Source of the DNA: Vicinamibacteria bacterium
Lineage (GTDB): Bacteria; Acidobacteriota; Vicinamibacteria; Vicinamibacterales; JAENWD01
NCBI GenBank assembly: GCA_963837165.1
Contig: CAWIMD010000002.1
Location: forward strand, 1,543,029-1,607,028
DNA: 64,000 nucleotides
Direction: 5' to 3'
Shown in pieces: positions 1 to 57,862 of this stretch (position 1 is its first letter; each line of letters begins with the position of its first letter). The notes beneath the pieces were generated by a model. The model was not told where the DNA came from, did no database searches, and saw only the letters and a program-made list of their open reading frames with translations. A program made the position numbers and the translations under genes.

Positions 1-2448
1 CCGATCGCCCCGCATGAAGTAGAGCTCCCGGCCGTCCGGCGCCCACATCGGACCGATGCCGCCCTCCGATGACAGCCGCTTTCGGCCGCCGCTCGAGTCG
101 ATCGGGCGGATGAAGATCTCGTTCCGCCCGGTCTCATCGGAGACATACGCGAGCCAGCGGCCATCGGGCGAGAACCTGGCCCCCCATTCATCGGCCTCGG
201 TCGTCAGCAGCGGTCGGGCCTGTCGATCGCCGACGAGCGGCAGCAGCCAGAGATCCCGCCGCCGCGAGGGATGGATCTCGACGAAGACCAGGGACCCTCC
301 GTCGGGCGAGAACGACGCGGGATACCGCGGGTACTCGCCGTGCGAGAGCTCTTCGCGCGCTCCGGAGCCGTCCGACGGCTTCCAGAAGATGGTGCCAGTG
401 CGCGTGCCAAACGCGATGCGCGCGCCATCGTGCGTCCACTGCGGAAAGATCTCGTCGAGCGGCTCGGACGTGAGCCGGACCGAGGTGCCGGTCCCGAGGT
501 CCTCGATCCAGACGTCGTCATTGATCGCGAAGATCCTGGTCGCGAGCGCCCGCCCGTCGGGCGAGATGGAGAACTCGCTGTAGTTGCCCCGCGTCCCGAT
601 CGGCTGCACGTGGCCCTGGCGATCGACTCGCACGAACAGGCGACCGCTCGTGATGCCGGTGTCGGGCTCGTAGATCAGCGTGCCGGTGTCCGAAACGGCG
701 TAATCGGCATCGCCGCTCCAGGTCCGGCCCAGGCCGCCGATCACCGGCACGGGCGTGCCGGTCACGGCCAGCGTGGCCAGATCGAAATCGACGGACAGCA
801 GTGCGCCGGCATGCACGTACACGATCCGTCCGGTCGGAACATATCGCGCGTTGCTGCCGCCCCGAATCAGGGTGCGAGGCGTGTCGGCGCCGGCGCTCAG
901 GACGGCGATGTCCTGATCGTCGGCGGTGATGGCGTGGCCGGATGCGAGCGTGAACAGCACGCCCTTGCCGCCGGGGAGCACGTCCGGATCGGCGTACACC
1001 ACCCTGTCGTGCGCCGGATCGGTCTCGAGGAGCGACCGGGGTGTGCCTCCGGTCGAGGGCACGCTCCACAAGCCGCCGTTGTAATCGGGCACGAAGACGA
1101 TGGTCCCGTCCGCGCCCCAGGCGCCTCCGTAGAATCCCGTGCTCGACAGCGTGCAGATCGTGGTCGGCGAGCCGCCGCTGACGGCGACCTTCCGCAGCGC
1201 GCGTCCCGTGCCAAACGCGATCCACGCGCCATCGGGAGAAAAGAACGGGGTCCGGGCGTCATCGGTGCCGTCGATCGGCCTCGCGTCGGCGTCTCCCATC
1301 GAGCGAAAGAACAGCCGGGGACGCCCGTCGGGGTTCGCGACGAAGACAACACTCCTGCCATCCGGAGAGATCGCCACCTGATGATTCGCGTTCAGATAGA
1401 GAGACGACGAGGTGCGTGCGACCGACGTGAGGGTCAGATGGGTGACGGCCGGCGTCTCGCGTGACGTGGACACGCGGACCCACCAGACCGCGCTCGCAAG
1501 GACCGCGCCCCCGAGCAGCGCCAGCACGATTGGCGCGAGGCGCCGGTCGGCACGAGCCCGTGGATCGGGCGCCAGGCCGTCGGGGTACGCCGCGGCGTCG
1601 CTGAGCTCGATGCGCACGTCCGCCGCATCGTGCATGCGCTGTCGCGGCTCCTTCCGCAGGCACCGGCCGAGCAGCCGACGAATCCGTGCCGGCGTCCCAT
1701 CGGGGAGGGCCTGCCAGTCCGGCTCCCCGCGAAGCACGGCGGCCAGGGTATCCGACAGCGTCGCGCCGGCAAACGCCGGTCTGCCCGTCAGCATCTCGTA
1801 GAGCACGCATCCCAGCGCCCAGATGTCGGTGCGCCTGTCCACGGGTGCGCCACGCGCCTGTTCCGGGCTCATGTAGGCCGCGGTCCCGACGATCATCCCC
1901 GGCACGGTAATCCCGGCCGGGCTCGTGATCGTCGGCGAACTCGGCGCCATCGACGAGACGGCCTCGACGTCGAACGCCCTGGCGAGCCCGAAGTCGAGAA
2001 TCTTGACGGTCCCGTCCGTGCGGATCTTGATGTTGGCCGGCTTCAGGTCGCGATGGACGATGCCCGCGTCGTGCGCGGCTTCCAGGCCCTCGGCGACCTG
2101 GCTGGCGATGGCCAGAGTCTCGTCGATCGGGAGCGCGCCGCGTGCCAGCCGCTGCGCCAGGTCCTCGCCCTCGACGTACTCGAGTGCCAGGGCCAGGATG
2201 CCATCCGTCTCTTCGAGCCCGTGGATTGCCGCGACGTTCGGGTGGTTGAGCGACGCGAGCACCTGTGCTTCGCGCCTGAACCGTGCGACCCGCTGGGCAT
2301 CCTGCGCAAAGCCCGCCGGCAGCACCTTGATCGCGGCATCGCGGTTCAACCGCGTGTCGCGCGCGCGATACACCTCGCCCATGCCGCCCGCACCAAGCGA
2401 GCCCGTCACACGGTAGGGACCGAATGTCGTGCCGATCGCGAGGCTCAC
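1..2448 (-). CDS. Ser/Thr protein kinase with C-terminal TolB-like beta-propeller region (C-terminus runs off the window start)
   Basis: Absent from the supplied ORF track because no stop lies in the window. My translation of the minus strand from GTG 2448-2446 gives VSLAIGTTFGPYRVTGSLGAGGMGEVYRARDTRLNRDAAIKVLP (G-loop and AxK), HRDLKPANI, DFGLA and MSPEQ. A hydrophobic segment and many SPDG/FSPDG repeats follow. The frame stays open to base 1 (...GPMWAPDGRELYFMRGDR). Confidence 0.8.
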   Translation of the reverse strand, partial: MSLAIGTTFGPYRVTGSLGAGGMGEVYRARDTRLNRDAAIKVLPAGFAQDAQRVARFRREAQVLASLNHPNVAAIHGLEETDGILALALEYVEGEDLAQRLARGALPIDETLAIASQVAEGLEAAHDAGIVHRDLKPANIKIRTDGTVKILDFGLARAFDVEAVSSMAPSSPTITSPAGITVPGMIVGTAAYMSPEQARGAPVDRRTDIWALGCVLYEMLTGRPAFAGATLSDTLAAVLRGEPDWQALPDGTPARIRRLLGRCLRKEPRQRMHDAADVRIELSDAAAYPDGLAPDPRARADRRLAPIVLALLGGAVLASAVWWVRVSTSRETPAVTHLTLTSVARTSSSLYLNANHQVAISPDGRSVVFVANPDGRPRLFFRSMGDADARPIDGTDDARTPFFSPDGAWIAFGTGRALRKVAVSGGSPTTICTLSSTGFYGGAWGADGTIVFVPDYNGGLWSVPSTGGTPRSLLETDPAHDRVVYADPDVLPGGKGVLFTLASGHAITADDQDIAVLSAGADTPRTLIRGGSNARYVPTGRIVYVHAGALLSVDFDLATLAVTGTPVPVIGGLGRTWSGDADYAVSDTGTLIYEPDTGITSGRLFVRVDRQGHVQPIGTRGNYSEFSISPDGRALATRIFAINDDVWIEDLGTGTSVRLTSEPLDEIFPQWTHDGARIAFGTRTGTIFWKPSDGSGAREELSHGEYPRYPASFSPDGGSLVFVEIHPSRRRDLWLLPLVGDRQARPLLTTEADEWGARFSPDGRWLAYVSDETGRNEIFIRPIDSSGGRKRLSSEGGIGPMWAPDGRELYFMRGDR

Positions 2449-2470
2449 ATGGTCTACGGACTCGTCTGCC

Positions 2471-5074
<2,604 letters not shown>

Positions 5075-5172: not shown

Positions 5173-5187
<15 letters not shown>
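5132..5187. repeat. Family A octamer array, CCTATCCT x7 (minus strand reads AGGAGGAT)
   Basis: Read directly. The metH stop TAG (5173-5175) lies inside the array. It is followed downstream (on the minus strand) by the kinase promoter and start. Confidence 0.95.
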
Positions 5188-8910
<3,723 letters not shown>

Positions 8911-9912
8911 TTCAGTCCTTCGTGCCCTTTGTGCCCTTTGTGTTCGTCGTGCCCTTTGTGTCCCTTCGTGTTCTTCGTGTTCTTCGTGTCCTTCGTGTAC
9001 CCCTGACGCGACGATGACGGTGAACGGGTCGCCCGTCAGGCGCGCGCCCACACTGGTCCGCACGGTCGTCAGCCCCGCCTCCTTCATCAGCCGGGCCAGG
9101 TCCGCGACGTCGAAGCCGAGCCACCGGTCGCCGAAGCGCTCGCGGACCCAGGTCTCGTCGTGCGTCCGCAGGTCGAGCACCAGCACACGGCCGCCGGGCC
9201 GCACGATGCGGGTGGCCTCGGCGAGGGCGCGGGCGGGGTCGGCGGCGTGGTGCAGCGCCTGCGACAGCAGCGCCACGTCCACCGAGCCGTCGGGGAGCGG
9301 CAGGCGCTCGAGATCGGCGCGCTTCCAGGTGACGTTGGTCACCTTGCGCCGACGCGCCAGGGCGCGGGCCCGGTCGAGGACCTCGGCCGACCGATCCACC
9401 GCCACGACGCGGCGTGCCCAGCGGGCGGCTTCCACGGTCAGGTACCCCTCGCCGCAACCGAGGTCGGCCACGTCCCACGCCGGCAGCAGGTGCCCGAGCG
9501 CGCGGGCCCAGGCGGCCCAGCTGCGTCCCGGCACGAGCTGACGGCCATCGCCGTGCGTGGCGAAGCTCTCCTTCCGGAGCCGCAGCACCTCCTTGAGCCG
9601 GGCGTGATCGGCGCGGGCGGCCGGGTCCGACGCCGCCGCGGCGAACCCGGCCTCGAGCAGGGGCCAGAGCGCGGCCGGGCCCGTCCGCCGGTCGGGCGGC
9701 GGCACCTGGAACCAGGTGTAGCCCCCCTCGCGCCGCTCCTCGACCAGCCCGCTCTCGCGCAGCAGGCCAAGGTGGCGCGAGACGCCGGACTGCGCGATGC
9801 CCAGGATGCCGGTCAGCTCGGTCACGTTGAGCCGCTCGGCCGCCAGCAGCCGCAGCAGGCGGAGCCGGACCTCGTCGCCGAGCAGCCGGAACAGGGCCGA
9901 CGCGTCCTTCAC
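8911..9912 (-). CDS. ArsR/SmtB-family HTH fused to a class I SAM-dependent methyltransferase; no stop codon of its own, reads in frame through a repeat array into metH
   Basis: GTG 9912 begins [57 protein letters not shown] (ArsR wHTH). [12 protein letters not shown] (SAM motif I) follows. The domain ends around ...[12 protein letters not shown]. The nonamer array is then translated ([29 protein letters not shown]) up to the metH ATG. Confidence 0.8.
8916..8997. repeat. Family D nonamer array, 9 units (minus strand reads CACGAAGGA-type); eight 9-mers plus one 10-mer
   Basis: The plus strand reads TCCTTCGTG CCCTTTGTG CCCTTTGTG TTCGTCGTG CCCTTTGTG TCCCTTCGTG TTCTTCGTG TTCTTCGTG TCCTTCGTG. The array lies between the ArsR-MT domain and the metH ATG. 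Confidence 0.95.
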
Positions 9913-9919
9913 ATCTATA

Positions 9920-9925
9920 AATCTA
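9920..9925 (-). promoter_or_regulatory. -10-like TAGATT 7 nt upstream of GTG 9912 (ArsR-MT); leaderless geometry
   Basis: It sits in an AT-rich island (ATCTATAAATCTA) within GC-rich sequence. Confidence 0.35.
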
Positions 9926-10510
9926 CATGCGTGGATGGATTGTGGTCAAGGGAACCGGAGGGGGATCTGGGGGGCTGGGGATCTGGGGATCTGGGGGGCT
10001 GGGGATCTGGGGATCTGAGGGATCGGGGGATCTGGGGATCTGGGGGGCTGGGGATCTGGGGGGCTGGGGATCTGGGGGGGCTGGGGATCCGGGGGGGCTG
10101 GGGATCTGGGGATCTGATTTTCTCCGGAGACGTACCGTCCGACCTCGGCGCTCTTCGCTCCTGATCAGACCCATTAGTGGCGCGGCAACCTGACGGACCT
10201 GGCGCTCGAGGGCCGCCGTCGTCTCGTCCGACGTGTACCCGAGACGACGAGCGACGTGGACGTAGTAGCCGACCTCCGCGAGAGACGACCACGAGATCCG
10301 CAGAAAATGCACCGTGTCGCGGTGGTGCGATCGCGCAGTTCCTTCAACGATGTTCGCAGGGACTGAGAGCGCTGCCCGGCGCAATTGCGTACCGAGCACG
10401 AAGCGTTCATCCAAGGGAAATACTTCCTTTGCAAGACGATGCAGCCGGATGAAGAGATCGTCGGCACGCTGCCAGGCCACCAGGGAGCGATAGCGGAGTT
10501 GCTTGGGCAT
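9923..10510 (-). CDS. Four-helix-bundle protein (23S rRNA intervening-sequence protein family) with a repeat-encoded C-terminal tail
   Basis: ORF 9923..10540. The likely start is ATG 10510 ([57 protein letters not shown]...SLAEVGYY). This matches my memory of TIGR02436/PF05635. The last ~55 aa (DPQIPSPP...) are translation of the GGGGATCT array. Confidence 0.75.
9961..10115. repeat. Family B octamer array, GGGGATCT/GGGGGGCT about 19 units (G-rich on plus strand)
   Basis: Read directly. It is the inverted partner of the 10548-10664 array. Confidence 0.95.
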
Positions 10511-10547
10511 GCACCGGGGTAGCCGCAACCCTTGTGCCACCCGGCCT

Positions 10548-10664
10548 CCCAGATCCCCAGCCCCCCAGATCCCCAGATCCCCAGATCCCCAGATCCCCAG
10601 ATCCCCAGATCCCCAGATCCCCAGATCCCCAGATCCCCAGATCCCCAGATCCCCAGATCCCCCC
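10548..10664. repeat. Family B octamer array, CCCAGATC about 14 units (G-rich on minus strand)
   Basis: Read directly. It starts at the stop of the 10664..11101 gene and ends 37 nt before the four-helix-bundle start. Confidence 0.95.
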
Positions 10665-36765: not shown

Positions 36766-39201
36766 CTACTGATCGCGCAGCGTCTCCCCGGGATCGAGGC
36801 GCGCGATCGCCAGGGCCGGCACCAACGTCGCGACGACCGCCACCAGGAACAGCCCCGTCGCCACCGCCGCGTACGTCGTCGCGTCCACGGTCGTCACGCC
36901 CCAGAGGAGGTGCCGCAGCGTGCCGGATGCCGCGATGGCGGCGACGAGGCCGAGCAGGACGCCGCCAAGCGCCATGGTGACGCCCGGCGCCATCGCCTCG
37001 CCCAGCGCCCGGCGGAGCGAGGCGCCCAGCGCCAGCCGCACGCCCAGCTCGCGACGCCGTTCCTGCACGCTCTGCGCCATCAGGCCGTAGATGCCCGTGA
37101 CGGCCAGCACCAGGGCGAGCGCCGAGAGCGAGGCCAGCAGCAGCGCCTGGAAGCGCTCCCAGGCGAGCGAGGTCGCGCGCAGCTCGTCCAGCGTGTGGAA
37201 GCTGGCAATCGGCACCAGCGGATCGAGCGCGCCGGCGACGCGCTCGATCGCGCCCAGCGCCGCCGCGGGGGGCGCCGTCGTCCGCACGATCCAGCTGGGC
37301 GAGAACCAGGTGTGAACGAGCGAAAGGAACGTGCCGTCGGTCTGCGCCACGGGAATGTAGGCGGCGGGGATGGGACCGACCGGCCCGTAGTTGCCCCAGC
37401 TCGTCACCTGCTCGACGTCGCCGACGACGCCGACGATCGTGCGCTCGTCCGGGCCGAACCGGAGCCGGCTGCCGACCGGATCCTGGTGCGAGAGGTACTT
37501 GCGCGCGAACGCGTCGTTCACGACGGCCACGGGCTGGCTGTCCGCGGTGTCGGCGGCCTCCAGGCCGCGGCCGCGCCGAACCGGGATGCGCAACACGTCG
37601 AAGTAGTCCGGCGTGACGTAGGTCAGGTTGGTGATCAGGAACTGATCGCCCGCTTCGGGACCATCGAGGCGCCGGGCCCCCATGTTCAGCCCGCGCTCGT
37701 ATGGGAGGCTCAGCCCCGCGGCCACCGCCTCCACACCCGGCACCTGCGCGAGCCTGGTCGTGCCGGTGGCCATGAGAGCGGTCACCTTCGCCGCATCCGT
37801 GTACCTGGCGTCGTCCAGCGAGAAGGACGCCGCCACCACGTGCCGCGGATCGAAGCCGGGTTCGAGCCCGTTCAGGTATCGGACGCTCCTGACCAGCAGG
37901 CCGGCGCCCACCAGCAGCAGCACGGCCAGCGCGATCTCGGTCGTCACCAGGACGCGACGGCTCCAGTGCCGGCTGCCGCCGGCCATGCCGCGCGACCCGC
38001 CCGACACCAGCGCGGCGCGCAAGTCGATGAGGCTCGCCTCGATGGCCGGGGCGAGCCCGGCGAGCACGCCGGTGATGGCGGTGACGAGCGCGGTGACGAC
38101 CAGGACGCGCCAGTCGAGCGCTGGCGCCTCGATCGGCAGCACGTCGGCGGCGGCGATTCGGCCGAGCCACCACACGAGACCGGCGCCGACCGCCAGGCCC
38201 AGCAGGGCGCCGGCCGAGGTGACGACCAGGCTCTCCACGATGAGCTGGCGGAAGATGGCGCGGCGTCCGCCGCCGATGGCCATGCGGGTGGCGATCTCCC
38301 GCGTGCGCGACGCAGCCCCCGCGAGCAGGAGGCCAGCGACATTCGCGCATCCGATCAGCAGGACCACACCCACCGCGCCCCAGACGATCAGGAGCGGCTG
38401 CCGCAGCTCGCCCGTTCGGCTCTCGTGGAGCGAGGCGAGACCGAGCCGTGCCGTCGTGCCTTCACGCGGCTTCTCGAGCACCGCCGCGCCAATCGACGCG
38501 AGCCGCTGGTCGGCAATCGCGCGATCGACGCCCGGCTTCAGGCGGGCGACGATGCCGTAGTTGTTGCCACCTCCTTCGCCCGTGCGTGAGGGCCTGAGAG
38601 GCGTCCAGAGATCCGCGTCGGCATCCGTGCGGAGCCCCGCCGGCATGACACCGACGATCGTGTGCGGTTCGCCTTTGAGCGTGACGCGCTGTCCCACCGC
38701 GTCGGGGCGGCCGCCGAAGGCGCGCTGCCACAGGTGATGGCTCAGCACCACCACGGCCGGCCCCTCGGGGCGATCCTCCGCGGAGGTGAACTCCCGGCCG
38801 ACCAGCGGCGCGATGCCGAGCACGCGGAAGAAGCCGGCGCCGACGCGCTGCTGCTGCACGAACACCGCGCGATCGCCGGTGGCGAAGTTGACGCCCTTGA
38901 CCCAGCCGCTGTACACGGCCGCGTCAAGGTCGCCTGCGTGGTCGCGCACCGCCTCCCAGGTGGCGCCGTCCTCGCTCGCCTGCAGCCCGGAGGCGCTGCC
39001 GCCGGAGAATCGCGTGACGACCTGCACGAGGCGATCGGCATTCGGATACGGCAGCGGGCGGAAGAGCGTGGCGTCCACCACGCTGAAGATCGCCGCGTTG
39101 GCGCCGATGGCCAGCGCGAGCGTGAGAAGCAGGAGCGCCGTCGAGCCGGGCCGGCGCGCGAAGAACCGCAGGCCGTGGCGCACCTCGAGTGACAGGGACA
39201 T
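36766..39201 (-). CDS. ADOP-family duplicated orphan permease (two MacB-PCD/FtsX modules)
   Basis: Internal ATG 39201 of ORF 36766..40737 begins MSLSLEVRHGLRFFARRPGSTALLLLTLALAIGANAAIFSVVDATLFRPLPYPNADRLV. 811 aa with two FtsX modules. It matches the acidobacterial ADOP family (TIGR03434, from memory). Confidence 0.85.
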   Translation of the reverse strand: MSLSLEVRHGLRFFARRPGSTALLLLTLALAIGANAAIFSVVDATLFRPLPYPNADRLVQVVTRFSGGSASGLQASEDGATWEAVRDHAGDLDAAVYSGWVKGVNFATGDRAVFVQQQRVGAGFFRVLGIAPLVGREFTSAEDRPEGPAVVVLSHHLWQRAFGGRPDAVGQRVTLKGEPHTIVGVMPAGLRTDADADLWTPLRPSRTGEGGGNNYGIVARLKPGVDRAIADQRLASIGAAVLEKPREGTTARLGLASLHESRTGELRQPLLIVWGAVGVVLLIGCANVAGLLLAGAASRTREIATRMAIGGGRRAIFRQLIVESLVVTSAGALLGLAVGAGLVWWLGRIAAADVLPIEAPALDWRVLVVTALVTAITGVLAGLAPAIEASLIDLRAALVSGGSRGMAGGSRHWSRRVLVTTEIALAVLLLVGAGLLVRSVRYLNGLEPGFDPRHVVAASFSLDDARYTDAAKVTALMATGTTRLAQVPGVEAVAAGLSLPYERGLNMGARRLDGPEAGDQFLITNLTYVTPDYFDVLRIPVRRGRGLEAADTADSQPVAVVNDAFARKYLSHQDPVGSRLRFGPDERTIVGVVGDVEQVTSWGNYGPVGPIPAAYIPVAQTDGTFLSLVHTWFSPSWIVRTTAPPAAALGAIERVAGALDPLVPIASFHTLDELRATSLAWERFQALLLASLSALALVLAVTGIYGLMAQSVQERRRELGVRLALGASLRRALGEAMAPGVTMALGGVLLGLVAAIAASGTLRHLLWGVTTVDATTYAAVATGLFLVAVVATLVPALAIARLDPGETLRDQ

Positions 39202-47672: not shown

Positions 47673-48371
47673 TCACCCCTCATCGAAGACGACGACGATG
47701 ACCTCCCCCGGGCCGTGCACGCCGCGCGTCAGCGTCATCTCGATGTCGGCCGTGCGGCTCGGGCCGGTGACCAGGACGAGGTTGCTGCCCTCGTCAGCCA
47801 CGGCGGGGTGGTCCGACAGAAACGCGGCGTACGTCGGGTAGAGCCTGTCGGCGCGCAGCAGCGCGACGTGGACCGGCGGCAGCAGCGACGCCATCCGTCC
47901 GCGCCCCGGGCCGCTCACGAGCACCAGGCTGCCGGTGTCGGCCAGGCCCGCCAGCGCGCCGGTCAGGCCGACAGGCACGGGGTCCAACGCGGCGAGCCGC
48001 CGCCGGCGCTCGTCCGGATCCGACGGCAGCCAGCACGGCTCCACCGCAATGCCGGCCGCGGCCAGCGCCTCCGGCAGACCCGGGCAGTCGAGCCACTCCG
48101 GATCCCACGACAGCAGCCGCGTCGCGCCGCGCTCGGCAAGGAGCGACACGACGCCGTCAACGGCGGCCCGGGCGTCGCGGACCCGAATGGCGTGTCCCCC
48201 GAGCGCCTCCAGCTCTCCCGAGAACTGCCTGGCGAGGGCGTCCGGATCCTGGATCGCGCCGGGCGGCAGCACGAGCGCGCCCGGATGCTCGAGTCGCGCG
48301 GCGGGCGGCAGCACGCCGGTCCGCAGCTGACGGCTGATGGCGCCGAGCACGTCTAGGCGCGGGTCGCTCAT
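47673..48371 (-). CDS. lutC: Lactate utilization protein C (LUD domain)
   Basis: Internal ATG 48371 overlaps the lutB stop (ATGA). It begins MSDPRLDVLGAISRQL and contains GLTGALAGLADTGSLVL...TADIEMTLTRGVHGPGEVIVVVF. Confidence 0.8.
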   Translation of the reverse strand: MSDPRLDVLGAISRQLRTGVLPPAARLEHPGALVLPPGAIQDPDALARQFSGELEALGGHAIRVRDARAAVDGVVSLLAERGATRLLSWDPEWLDCPGLPEALAAAGIAVEPCWLPSDPDERRRRLAALDPVPVGLTGALAGLADTGSLVLVSGPGRGRMASLLPPVHVALLRADRLYPTYAAFLSDHPAVADEGSNLVLVTGPSRTADIEMTLTRGVHGPGEVIVVVFDEG

Positions 48372-49978
48372 CGACGCGACGCCCACTGGGCGAGGAACGT
48401 CTTCGACGCGAACGCCGGGAAGTCGCGCTGACGCGTCCAGCCCGAAAGGTGCCCCGGCAACCAGCGGATCCACCCGTCCCGCGACGCGAGGAGGCGCGTG
48501 ACACGGCGCGCGAGGCCCTGGGCGGCGCGGAACGCCCACGGCCGGCGTGCAAATTGCCGGAACAGCCACAGGCCCGACGTCGCCCAGGTCGCCGAATAGC
48601 CCATCGCGGTGCTGCGATCCCGGAGCGCGAGCAGCATGCGCGGGATGTCGATGCGGACCGGGCAGATCTCGCGGCACGCGCCGCACAGGCTGCTGGCCTG
48701 AGGCAGATCGGGGAACGCCTCCAGTCCCCTGAGACCCGGCGTGAGCACGGCGCCAACGGGCCCGGGATAGACCGACCCGTAGGCGTGCCCGCCGATCTCC
48801 TGATACACGGGGCAGGCGTTGAGGCACGCGCCGCAGCGGATGCAGTAGAGGATCTCGGCCAGCTCTCCCCCGAGCAGGCGGCTCCGCCCGTTGTCCACGA
48901 GGACGATGTGCAGGTGGTCGGGCCCGTCCGACTCACCGTCGGCCGGGACCGCCCCCGGATCCCCGGATCCCCAGCCCCCCAGATCCCCGGATCCCCAGCC
49001 CCCCAGATCCCCAGATCCATGGCCCCCCAGATCCCCGGATCCCCGGCCCCCCAGATCCCCGGATCCCCGGCCCCCCAGATCCCCGGATCCCCGGCCCCCC
49101 AGATCCCCAGATCCATGGCCCCCCGGCCTCCCGGCCGCTCCCCGCCGCGGCCCGGTGATCACGTTCGAGTAGACGGTCAGCTTCTGCCCCGTCGCGCTGC
49201 GCCCGAGCACCTGCAGCATGACGCCCAGGTCCGCGAGCGTCGGCACGAGCCGCTCGATGCCCATCAGCGCCACATGCACACGTGGCAGCGTCGTCGTCAG
49301 GCGGCCGTTGCCTTCATTCGTGCAGATGCAGAGGCTGCCGGTCTCGGCCACGCCGAAGTTGCCGCCGGAGATGCCCATGTCGGCGTTGAGGAACCCCACG
49401 CGCAGCGTGCGGCGGGCGAAGGCGGTCATGCGCGGCACGTCCACCAGATCGGCCTCGGTGGCGCCCAGCTTCTCGCGGAACGAGCGGGCCACGTCGTCGC
49501 GGCTCTTGTGGATGATCGGCCCGACGATGTGCGAGGGGTGATCGTGATCGATCTGGATCACGAACTCACCCAGGTCGGTCTCGAGGACCTCGACGCCGGC
49601 CGCCTCGAGGGCGTGGTTCAGGTCGATCTCCTCGCTCACCATCGACTTCGACTTCACCGCGGTCCGGACGCCGTGCTGCCGCGCGATGTCGGCGACGATC
49701 GCGACCGCGTCCTCCGCCGTCGAGGCCCAGTGGACGTGTCCGCCGCGCGCGAGCACGGCGTTCTCGAACTGACGCAGGTACTCGTCGAGCCGCGCGATGG
49801 TGTGCGCGCGGATGGCGCGCGCGTGATCGCGGACGATCTCGGCGTGCTCGAAGGCTGCCATCCCCGCGTCGCGCGCCGCGACCAGGCGGCTCGTCGCGCG
49901 GGCCATGGCCGCGTGGAGCACGGGATCCTTCAGCGCGAGCTCGACGCGTCGGTGAAATGTCGCCGGAGCAGCGTTCAT
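48368..49978 (-). CDS. lutB: Lactate utilization protein B (LUD domain plus 4Fe-4S dicluster) carrying an in-frame tandem-repeat insertion
   Basis: I moved the start to ATG 49978 (MNAAPATFHRRVELALKD). It contains CIRCGACLNACPVY and LCGACREICPV. Between ...VITGPRR and ADGESDGPDHLHIVLVDNGR sits (GSGDLGGX)x7, encoded by the octamer array. Confidence 0.85.
   Translation of the reverse strand: MNAAPATFHRRVELALKDPVLHAAMARATSRLVAARDAGMAAFEHAEIVRDHARAIRAHTIARLDEYLRQFENAVLARGGHVHWASTAEDAVAIVADIARQHGVRTAVKSKSMVSEEIDLNHALEAAGVEVLETDLGEFVIQIDHDHPSHIVGPIIHKSRDDVARSFREKLGATEADLVDVPRMTAFARRTLRVGFLNADMGISGGNFGVAETGSLCICTNEGNGRLTTTLPRVHVALMGIERLVPTLADLGVMLQVLGRSATGQKLTVYSNVITGPRRGAAGRPGGHGSGDLGGRGSGDLGGRGSGDLGGRGSGDLGGHGSGDLGGWGSGDLGGWGSGDPGAVPADGESDGPDHLHIVLVDNGRSRLLGGELAEILYCIRCGACLNACPVYQEIGGHAYGSVYPGPVGAVLTPGLRGLEAFPDLPQASSLCGACREICPVRIDIPRMLLALRDRSTAMGYSATWATSGLWLFRQFARRPWAFRAAQGLARRVTRLLASRDGWIRWLPGHLSGWTRQRDFPAFASKTFLAQWASRR
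48952..49130. repeat. Family B octamer array inside lutB (CCCCAGAT/CCCCGGAT/CCCCGGCC; 24-nt super-unit x7)
   Basis: Read directly. The minus strand encodes GSGDLGG[RHW] x7 in the lutB frame. Confidence 0.95.
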
Positions 49979-49985
49979 GCGCGTT

Positions 49986-50020
49986 TCAATCGTCAATCGT
50001 CAATCATCAATCGTCAATAA
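49986..50020. repeat. Family C heptamer array, TCAATCG x5 (variants TCAATCA, TCAATAA)
   Basis: It contains the lutA stop (50000-50002) and ends 8 nt from the lutB ATG 49978. Confidence 0.95.
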
Positions 50021-50761
50021 TTCGGCCAGGTGCAGCACGCGCATGGCGCTGCCCTTCCGGTGCAGTCCGCCGCCGATGTGCAGCAGGCAGCTGATGTCGG
50101 TGGCGACGAGCGTGTCGGCGCCGCTGCGCTCGAGGCAGGCGATCTTCCGATCGAGCAGGCTCCCCGAGATGTCGCTCATCTTCACGGCGAACAGGCCGCC
50201 GAAGCCGCAGCAGGTGCGGGCCTCCTCCAGCGGGCATCGCTCGACGCCTCTGACGTGCTCGAGGAGCGCCTCGGGCTGGCGCTCCAGCCCCAGCCCGCGC
50301 AGGCCGTGGCAGGCGGGGTGATACGCGACGCGGCCCGTGGCATGTGCGCCGAGGTCGGCGACGCCGAGGACGTCCACCAGGAACTCGGTCAGCTCCCAGG
50401 TACGGTCCGCCAGCGCGCGGGCACGGGGCCCGTACACCGGATCGGCGGCGAGCAGCGCCGGGGCCTGGTGGATCACCATGTCGCCGCACGACCCCGATGG
50501 CACCACGACGGGCAGGCCGGTCCCGCCGAACGCGTCGATGAGGTGCCGCGCGATCCCGCGCGCGTCCTCCCACGAGCCGGCATTGAACGCCGGCTGGCCG
50601 CAGCAGGTCTGCGCCGGCGGGACGTCCACGGCGACGCCCGCTCTCTCGAGCACCTTGACCACGGCAAACCCGACCTCCGGCCGGAGGCTGTCGACGAGGC
50701 AGGTGACGAGGAGCTGCACGCGCGTCGGGCGCGGCTCGGGCAGGGGACGGCGATCGCTCAC
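50000..50761 (-). CDS. lutA: Lactate utilization protein A ((Fe-S)-binding, CCG domains)
   Basis: GTG start. It contains VQLLVTCLVDSLRPEVGFAVVKVLERAGVAVDVPPAQTCCGQPAFNAG and a second CCG motif, RTCCGFGG. Confidence 0.85.
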   Translation of the reverse strand: MSDRRPLPEPRPTRVQLLVTCLVDSLRPEVGFAVVKVLERAGVAVDVPPAQTCCGQPAFNAGSWEDARGIARHLIDAFGGTGLPVVVPSGSCGDMVIHQAPALLAADPVYGPRARALADRTWELTEFLVDVLGVADLGAHATGRVAYHPACHGLRGLGLERQPEALLEHVRGVERCPLEEARTCCGFGGLFAVKMSDISGSLLDRKIACLERSGADTLVATDISCLLHIGGGLHRKGSAMRVLHLAELLTIDD

Positions 50762-57811: not shown

Positions 57812-57862
57812 GCATTGATGATTGAGCATTGACGATTGACGATTGACGATTGGATGGATTGA
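57812..57862. repeat. Family C heptamer array in GATTGAC orientation, about 7 units
   Basis: It starts immediately after the ilvD TGA (57809-57811) and ends at the GAGGG SD of ilvB. Confidence 0.95.

Follow-up and report, generated by a model that had tools for sequence, protein, structure and literature searches.

An in-frame octamer repeat array inside lutB of a Vicinamibacteria bacterium, probably a tolerated and length-polymorphic loop expansion

Introduction

How does a tandem repeat with an 8-nucleotide (nt) unit persist in frame well inside the gene of a conserved enzyme? The question is raised by lutB, the gene for the iron-sulfur subunit LutB/LldF, in a 64,000-nt stretch of a Vicinamibacteria genome assembly (GCA_963837165.1, contig CAWIMD010000002.1, positions 1,543,029 to 1,607,028), here called the window. 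Dispersed tandem repeats of 6 to 9 nt are poorly understood in bacteria and have mostly been handled as intergenic features. The lutB locus shows how such a repeat survives in the gene of an essential-looking enzyme, with the octamer organized into a 24-nt super-unit in codon phase and with frame-safe changes of length. We consider that an octamer simple sequence repeat (SSR) typical of this genome has probably expanded in the one permissive internal loop of LutB, where it is translated, tolerated, and polymorphic in length.

The lutB array is built of in-frame 24-nt super-units

The array lies between the ...YSNVITGPRR and ADGESDGPDHLHIVLVDNGR blocks of LutB, where a first-pass annotation made from the sequence alone had placed it (Table 1). 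Tandem Repeats Finder (TRF) scored it with a period of 24 nt (7.2 copies, 92% matches, score 283) and also with a period of 8 nt (20.2 copies, 74% matches), confirming the super-unit of three octamers and the seven in-frame copies described in that annotation. The super-unit is composed of GGGGATCC-GGGGATCT-GGGGGGCC, with the variants CATGGATCT and GGGGGGCT; the octamer consensus is GGGGATCY/GGGGGGCY, G-rich on the coding strand. Translation gives seven GSGDLGGX units, the final one variant, beginning HGSGDLGG-RGSGDLGG(x3). The X residue varies among R, H, and W, so the peptide shows no constraint there. The array spans codons ~285 to 343 of 536, about 53 to 64% along the open reading frame (ORF).

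Compared with itself at a shift of 24 nt, the array has an identity of 0.89 and a longest perfect run of 64 nt. Shifts of 8 and 16 nt give identities of 0.69 and 0.67, with longest runs of 12 and 10 nt. Misalignment by 24 nt is thus near-perfect and misalignment by 8 or 16 nt meets poor homology, which favors slippage by whole super-units over slippage by single octamers. This is the pattern that selection for the reading frame should produce, and it contrasts with the single-octamer array at 10548-10662. It also argues against an efficient on/off switch.

An intein or a mobile element was rejected as the source of the insert, which is made up of 8-nt units throughout and contains neither an ORF nor a domain.

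The host gene is intact

The operon order is lutA-lutB-lutC, with every gene on the minus strand, based on the ORF list and Pfam. The LUD domain (PF02589) was matched in LutB with an E value of 1.3e-46 at residues 69 to 281, covering profile positions 2 to 168 of 189, and positions 169 to 189 pick up again past the insert. A 4Fe-4S dicluster domain (Fer4_8, 1.4e-12) follows at residues 376 to 443, C-terminal to the array. The match to LutB_C (PF11870) was slightly below threshold (24.4 bits against a cut-off of 26.8 bits); the C-terminal region aligns over its full length with homologues annotated LutB/LldF. Both Cys motifs, CIRCGACLNACP and CGACREICP, are unbroken. Residues C379, C382, C385, and C389, together with C432, C435, and C439, are invariant across 89 LutB sequences, and all residues invariant in these homologues are present in the window LutB. 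A frameshifted lutB pseudogene in the window was rejected, because the ORF is intact.

The closest homologues in a 5.8-billion-protein collection, at 85 to 87% identity, are 472 to 475 amino acids (aa) long and annotated LldF/LutB. They align with the window LutB but without the repeat segment. B. subtilis LutB has 479 aa, and the 60 to 63 residues by which the window LutB exceeds its closest homologues match the insert, as the first-pass annotation had reckoned from the lengths of YkgF and LutB (about 475 to 480 aa).

The array fills a disordered loop that is short in close relatives

The loop is bordered by a nearly invariant P277-R278-R279 and by the invariant residues E349 and D351-G352-P353. 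Between these borders, residues 280 to 348 make 69 residues in the window LutB and only 6 to 9 in the closest array-free homologues. We determined loop lengths in 80 GTDB species-representative loci and in 84 further loci. Counted from the GP to the DGP anchor, the window has 73 residues; 73 of the 80 representative loci have 6, and the remaining seven, which form the nearest Vicinamibacteria/Vicinamibacterales group, have 10 to 13. In three proteins of 85 to 87% identity (P0001, P0003, and P0058), the loop is 10 to 13 residues when counted from the two Arg to Glu-Ser/Ala. No tandem repeat is present in the loop at the DNA level in L082, L083, and L084, the nearest relatives without an array. 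An equivalent conserved insertion in close repeat-free homologues, which would have counted against the first-pass claim, was looked for and not found.

We built an AlphaFold2 (AF2) model of LutB from the 89-sequence alignment. The LUD domain is mostly modeled with a predicted local distance difference test score (pLDDT) above 90. For residues 284 to 346, which separate strands 270-274 and 355-361, the pLDDT is below 50 and the model shows no secondary structure; the predicted insertion site is thus flanked by the two final strands of the LUD domain. This variable, disordered position fits the loop expansion that had been envisaged. Foldseek matched the model only to 9a6l_B (E value 1.6e-39, template-modeling scores 0.71/0.79), an integrative model of B. 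subtilis LutA-LutB in which LutB has 479 aa. A PDB sequence search returned no experimental LutB structure, its matches being the Fe-S region of formate dehydrogenase and a low-complexity match.

Sizeable internal insertions occur at this loop only, in 42 of the 89 LutB sequences. Elsewhere in the alignment the termini vary, and two sequences have a 5-residue insert.

A near-identical genome lacks one super-unit

The sole cluster mate of the window LutB in the protein collection is P0122, a 241-aa fragment from locus L085. This locus (ENA ERZ25039539, a 441-kb contig) aligns to window positions 38359 to 59117 (20.7 kb) at 99.58% identity, with 43 substitutions. Its lutB array is 23 nt shorter: one 24-nt super-unit is absent (the second one containing CATGGATCT), giving six super-units against the seven of the window, and one G-run is one base longer (GGGGGATCT). 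The array also carries one C/T substitution. The 24-nt loss is the frame-preserving slippage step predicted for this array; copy-number variation was assessed in this one genome comparison. No further allele closer than ~81% identity was found in a JGI metagenome scan, nor closer than 80% in a GTDB genome scan.

The extra G breaks the lutB frame in L085, a second +1 change lies elsewhere in the gene, and lutB is called there in two pieces. The two sequences differ by about 13 scattered 1-nt indels over the 20.7 kb (~0.6/kb), and an ilvD-like and an acetolactate-synthase-like gene of L085 are split as well. Given this background and the other split genes, the frameshift is most likely a sequencing error. 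The rule in the first-pass annotation that an 8-nt unit persists in coding DNA in multiples of three is borne out by the 24-nt loss. The remaining indels of 2 nt or more all fall in tandem arrays: 9 nt at ~43406 (a 9-mer array) and ~4 nt at 57828-57835 (a 7/14-mer array). Arrays are thus the fastest length-evolving DNA of this genome.

One of the scattered 1-nt indels adjoins a GATC site, and as a group these indels resemble the errors of long-read sequencing, in either assembly or in both.

These data bear on whether lutB is a phase-variable contingency locus, in which slippage of a single octamer would switch LutB and lactate utilization on and off. Such a locus would carry, within its reading frame, a unit whose length three does not divide, as here; between the window and L085, no DNA varies more in length than the arrays, and the L085 gene is broken by a frame-changing G. 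That G, however, is a 1-nt homopolymer change indistinguishable from the 1-nt indel background of that assembly, and the single unit-scale difference seen is 24 nt. The octamers within a super-unit differ, as the self-comparison shows. The array also sits mid-gene, whereas phase-variable SSRs are enriched near N termini (PMC3315296), and arrays at this loop remain in frame across species. Of the two possibilities in the first-pass annotation, a tolerated loop or an on/off switch, the data support the loop and leave the switch very unlikely.

Could the array instead be an assembly or polishing error, or the mark of a recent lutB pseudogene? Repeat copy number is hard to assemble, and related assemblies of the series contain frameshifts. 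Nevertheless, the array site is shared by two independent assemblies 43 substitutions apart, which argues against the artefact considered earlier, and a third lineage sequenced in another project, L081, carries a short, homologous array of octamers at this codon. The window gene also keeps its ORF, its invariant residues, and both Cys motifs. Artefact or decay is therefore hardly credible.

Table 1. Positions of the lut genes, the LutB loop, and repeat arrays in the window and, for other loci, of arrays in the same LutB loop (positions in the coordinates of each sequence)
Sequence	Feature	Position	Strand	Basis or remark
Window	lutB (LutB/LldF iron-sulfur subunit)	48368..49978	-	536 aa from ATG 49978, ORF unbroken
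Window	Whole variable LutB loop, residues 280-348	48935..49141	-	Alignments, loop-length counts, AF2 model
Window	Tandem array, seven 24-nt super-units of three octamers each, encoding (GSGDLGGX)x7	48952..49124	-	TRF and sequence
Window	lutA, upstream in operon	50000..50761	-	Pfam CCG 6.7e-29, two stretches = two cysteine-rich CCG domains
Window	lutC (LUD domain), downstream in operon	47673..48371	-	Pfam LUD_dom 2.1e-31; start overlaps lutB stop
Window	GGGGATCT/GGGGGGCT octamer array, 24-nt periodicity with indels, at gene end	9961..10116	G-rich on +	TRF, pattern search
Window	Intergenic octamer array, ~14 near-perfect GGGGATCT units	10548..10662	G-rich on -	TRF CCCAGATC x14.4, 96% matches
Window	Heptamer array CCGCACC, ~9 units, 63 nt, in frame in metH ORF 5173-9912	7855-7917	-	MetH residues 666-687
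Window	Heptamer array TCAATCG x4.7	49986..50018		TRF; gives last codons and stop of lutA and most of lutA-lutB spacer
L081	Octamer GGAGCTGG x4.4, units GGGGAGCT/GGGGATCT			Probably homologous to window array
L086 (Anaerolineae)	GAGGCGAG x4.5 and AAATCGT x4.9			
L087 (Anaerolineae)	GCAAGGGA x3.9 and AATCCAA x4.6			
L088	Nonamer GGTCAGGCA x6.8			
L089	Heptamer CAGGGGC x13.7			
L097	GGTGCGCAA x8.6	2155-2231		
L166	GGTGCGACA x5.9	2445-2497		
L093	CGCACCTAA x5.2			
L096	GCACCCGAC x6.1	1279-1333		
L165	GCACCTGTC x4.6	3838-3878		

The same octamer family occurs at two other loci of the window

We searched the window for the doublet GGGGATCYGGGGATCY with at most one mismatch and found 20 occurrences, against none in 100 dinucleotide shuffles. 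All of them belong to one of three loci (9977-10115, 10567-10662, and 48957-49092), so the family inside lutB is the one that flanks a small gene elsewhere in the window, as had been claimed. TRF gave period 8 at all three. The two flanking arrays are convergent on either side of the small gene, 9923..10540 on the minus strand. Among the other 165 loci retrieved, GGGGATCY doublets were found in L085 only.

The window, at 70.5% G+C, contains 24 arrays of 7- to 9-nt units, about one per 2.7 kb. Nearly all are at gene boundaries; two, in lutB and metH, lie deep inside genes. The heptamer array in metH falls between the homocysteine S-methyltransferase domain (residues 353 to 661) and the pterin-binding domain (709 to 947) and is in frame, so the lutB case is not unique in this genome.

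Several unit families recur in the window: TCAATCG at ~9 loci, TCCCATCC/CCTATCCT at four, and ACACGAAGG/ACACAAAGG and GGGGATCT at three each. Chance seeding alone is no explanation for the same units at unlinked loci.

Arrays recur at the same LutB loop in other lineages

Eleven further loci have arrays of 7-, 8-, or 9-nt units in the LutB loop (Table 1), all in frame save for the L085 indel. They represent at least 10 further lineages of Vicinamibacteria and Anaerolineae, and loop insertions are kept throughout an Anaerolineae clade. The loop peptide of P0107, CGADLRDPCGADLQ, has an apparent 24-nt period, seen at the protein level only. The loop has been colonized repeatedly, by unrelated repeats in two phyla and, between close relatives, in both orientations. 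In a neighbor-joining (NJ) tree with the loop masked, array-bearing LutBs are scattered among array-free ones, and the window groups with P0003 and P0001, which have no array, and with P0002/L081, which has a short one.

The loop array tends to match a dispersed family of the host genome, as in the window and in L088, where the loop 9-mer recurs at 4356-4403 of the locus. Orientation is not fixed. Reverse-complemented and cyclically permuted, the L165 unit GCACCTGTC matches the L166 unit GGTGCGACA exactly, and these genes are 91.5% identical. Likewise, L097 and L096, with flanks 95.5% identical, have GGTGCG-NNN nonamer arrays in opposite orientation, translated as (G-A-x)n in L097 and (A-P-x)n in L096. 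In both pairs the opposed GGTGCG-NNN arrays are in frame, reading (G-A-x)n versus (A-P-x)n. These flips suggest either inversion in situ or re-colonization in either orientation.

L090, a metagenomic locus, has in its LutB loop (78 nt) a small imperfect palindrome, GGGTCAATGACCCC...GGGGTCATTGACCC, and no tandem repeat; the loop thus also accepts a hairpin-type insert.

Whether the array is instead a selected element can be judged from its predicted structure and from these lineages. A role might be the tuning of lutB-lutC transcription or translation by G-quadruplexes (G4s) or hairpins, or a function of the Gly-rich loop within LutABC. The sense strand of the array carries 21 tracts of four or more G. 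For the 220-nt region, ViennaRNA predicted five G4s and a minimum free energy of -177 kcal/mol when G4s were allowed, compared with -119 kcal/mol when they were not. Related GGGNATC repeats make G4s in vitro (PMC4692102), and the retention of loop insertions over the whole Anaerolineae clade points the same way. Against a selected role, the closest relatives work without an array, and the X position of the window peptide is free to vary. The inserts differ by lineage in sequence, unit length (7, 8, or 9 nt), amino acids, and orientation, which argues against a specific peptide or nucleic-acid function. We regard selection for such a role as quite unlikely.

A proposed slippage model, and what weighs against it

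In the explanation we favor, GGGGATCY/GGGGGGCY octamers dispersed in intergenic DNA would have grown by replication slippage inside lutB, at the hairpin loop connecting the final pair of beta-strands in the LUD domain. Only array lengths divisible by three would leave LutB intact, and the surviving array would for that reason be ordered as 24-nt (3 x 8) super-units, which may now be the slippage unit. Copy number would then shift in frame-preserving steps, such as that from seven here to six in the 99.6%-identical genome. The product would be a Gly/Ser/Asp-rich disordered loop of ~60 residues, tolerated because LutB accepts insertions at no other internal position, and a dedicated function would be unneeded. 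In the mRNA, the G-rich sense strand may incidentally give G4s or hairpins. From the observations above we infer that slippage was the mechanism and that the outcome is neutral or tolerated.

Several points weigh against this explanation. The neutrality of the array is deduced rather than observed. G4-capable tracts on the sense strand of ORFs are reported to be under-represented in other bacteria (PMC4692102), and with 21 such tracts here an effect on expression is possible. If the extra G of L085 is real, it would constitute an "off" allele. In addition, recurrence at one loop of several unit families in both orientations could indicate more than passive tolerance.

This last point leads to another possibility, that an active process, indifferent to orientation, recurrently targets the LutB loop by seeding it with, or copying into it, the dispersed 7- to 9-nt repeats of the same genome. 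The process may be template switching at structured or G4 DNA, or some other repeat-propagating activity. We think this unlikely. If true, the repeats of soil phyla rich in short tandem repeats (Acidobacteriota and Chloroflexota) would behave as propagating elements able to colonize coding DNA, flip orientation, create disordered segments, and possibly tune expression via G4s.

The origin of the window array can be read in two ways. Its right flank, CGGTCCCGG..., is homologous to the loop of L084, and the few octamers of L081 occupy the equivalent codon position. In the NJ tree the window and L081 are not sisters, which makes two gains as possible as a single gain followed by losses. Insertion of the array by import and growth in situ both stand.

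Relation to known repeat systems

The closest parallel is to the GGGNATC SSRs of Xanthomonas and Nostoc, which form dispersed arrays of 2 to 26 units, mostly intergenic and near the stop codon of the upstream gene (Rehm et al. 2015, PMC4692102). Both have a G-tract followed by ATC (GGGGATCT/GGGGATCC here, GGGAATC and GGGGA(C/T)T there). Dispersal near gene ends is also shared: of the three loci in the 64 kb examined here, one is intergenic and one is at a gene end. Xanthomonas GGGAATC repeats form convergent opposite-strand pairs in 70 to 75 cases (PMC4692102), and the window has such a pair at 9961-10116 and 10548-10662. Of the GGGNATC arrays, 7 to 11% overlap ORFs, and copy number is not conserved among related genomes (PMC4692102). 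The lutB array differs in being an octamer rather than a heptamer, in its acidobacterial (Vicinamibacteria) host, and in being long (~21 G-tracts), on the coding strand, in the middle of the gene for a conserved enzyme, and ordered as a 24-nt super-unit in codon phase. G4 formation has been observed in vitro for the GGGNATC SSRs and is only predicted for lutB. Because of the unit length (8 versus 7) and the different host, we do not file the lutB array as a member of that family.

Plasmodium falciparum has repeat-encoded low-complexity insertions in the surface loops of housekeeping enzymes. Like the lutB insert, they are disordered and biased in composition, and they are generated by slippage of repeats typical of the genome, polymorphic in length, and usually deemed tolerated. 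Those are eukaryotic, AT-rich, and dominated by trinucleotide or codon repeats, whereas the lutB array is bacterial and GC-rich, with a unit out of codon phase. Our literature search on tandem repeats in Vicinamibacteria found no paper. The TAACTGA heptamer direct repeats of Beggiatoaceae, Cyanobacteria, and Bacteroidetes are intergenic and occasionally within ORFs (MacGregor 2015, PMC4679880). They too are repeats of the 7-nt class at gene boundaries, and some supply the stop codon of the upstream gene, as TCAATCG does for lutA. However, the unit is different, translated copies are at protein termini (the "periphery") or in hypothetical proteins, and no in-frame super-unit has been described.

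The SSR contingency loci of Haemophilus, Neisseria, and other bacteria (PMC3315296, PMC11868660) likewise have a non-triplet unit in a coding sequence whose copy number changes by slippage. Their tracts are homogeneous, are usually built of 1- to 5-nt units, and occur close to the 5' end of surface or restriction-modification genes. Unlike these, the lutB tract is homogeneous in steps of 24 nt but heterogeneous in steps of 8 nt, and it lies mid-gene, in a central metabolic enzyme.

The recurrent colonization of one loop, with flips of orientation, is the part that specialists would not have predicted. The LutB loop is thereby well suited to measuring how bacterial short tandem repeats are born, turn over, and invert, and to studying where disordered segments come from. 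There is also a practical consequence: G4-prone tracts and GATC sites are contexts of long-read indel error, and such loci may be mis-annotated as pseudogenes, as in L085.

Other arrays in the window and in lut operons

The small gene between the convergent octamer arrays is the one that the first-pass annotation called the four-helix-bundle gene. Its ORF reads through the array at 9961-10116, which would add a Pro/Ser-rich C-terminal tail of ~60 residues.

Next to metH, a 9-mer array at 8915-8998 on the minus strand (CACGAAGGA/CACAAAGGG, ~9 units) links an ORF for an ArsR-type helix-turn-helix and S-adenosylmethionine methyltransferase protein to metH with no intervening stop, giving a 1579-aa ORF. 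One unit of this array is 10 nt long. Were that unit 9 nt long, a TGA overlapping the metH start (ATGA) would terminate the upstream frame. The joined ORF is either a real fusion or the result of a 1-nt assembly error within the array.

The junction of lutA and lutB is a further hot spot for arrays, and its units differ among relatives: GGGCAGGGT x8.8 at 352-432 in L081, CAGGGTGAA x8.6 at 9901-9978 in L082, and GAAGAGC x5.1 at 1117-1152 in L084. In L083, lutA and lutB overlap, and there is no array at the junction.

Translated repeats in the lut operon are not confined to LutB. In the Anaerolineae loci L086 (2597-2633 and 2969-2994) and L087 (2602-2633 and 2969-2994), octamer arrays of GAGGAGGC / CGAGGAGG lie inside or at the end of lutA, called at 2195-3004 in L086 and 2198-3004 in L087. 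In L082, the 87%-identical relative, a Y1 (IS200/IS605/RAYT-type) tyrosine transposase gene lies at 1451-1897, ~8 kb from lutB.

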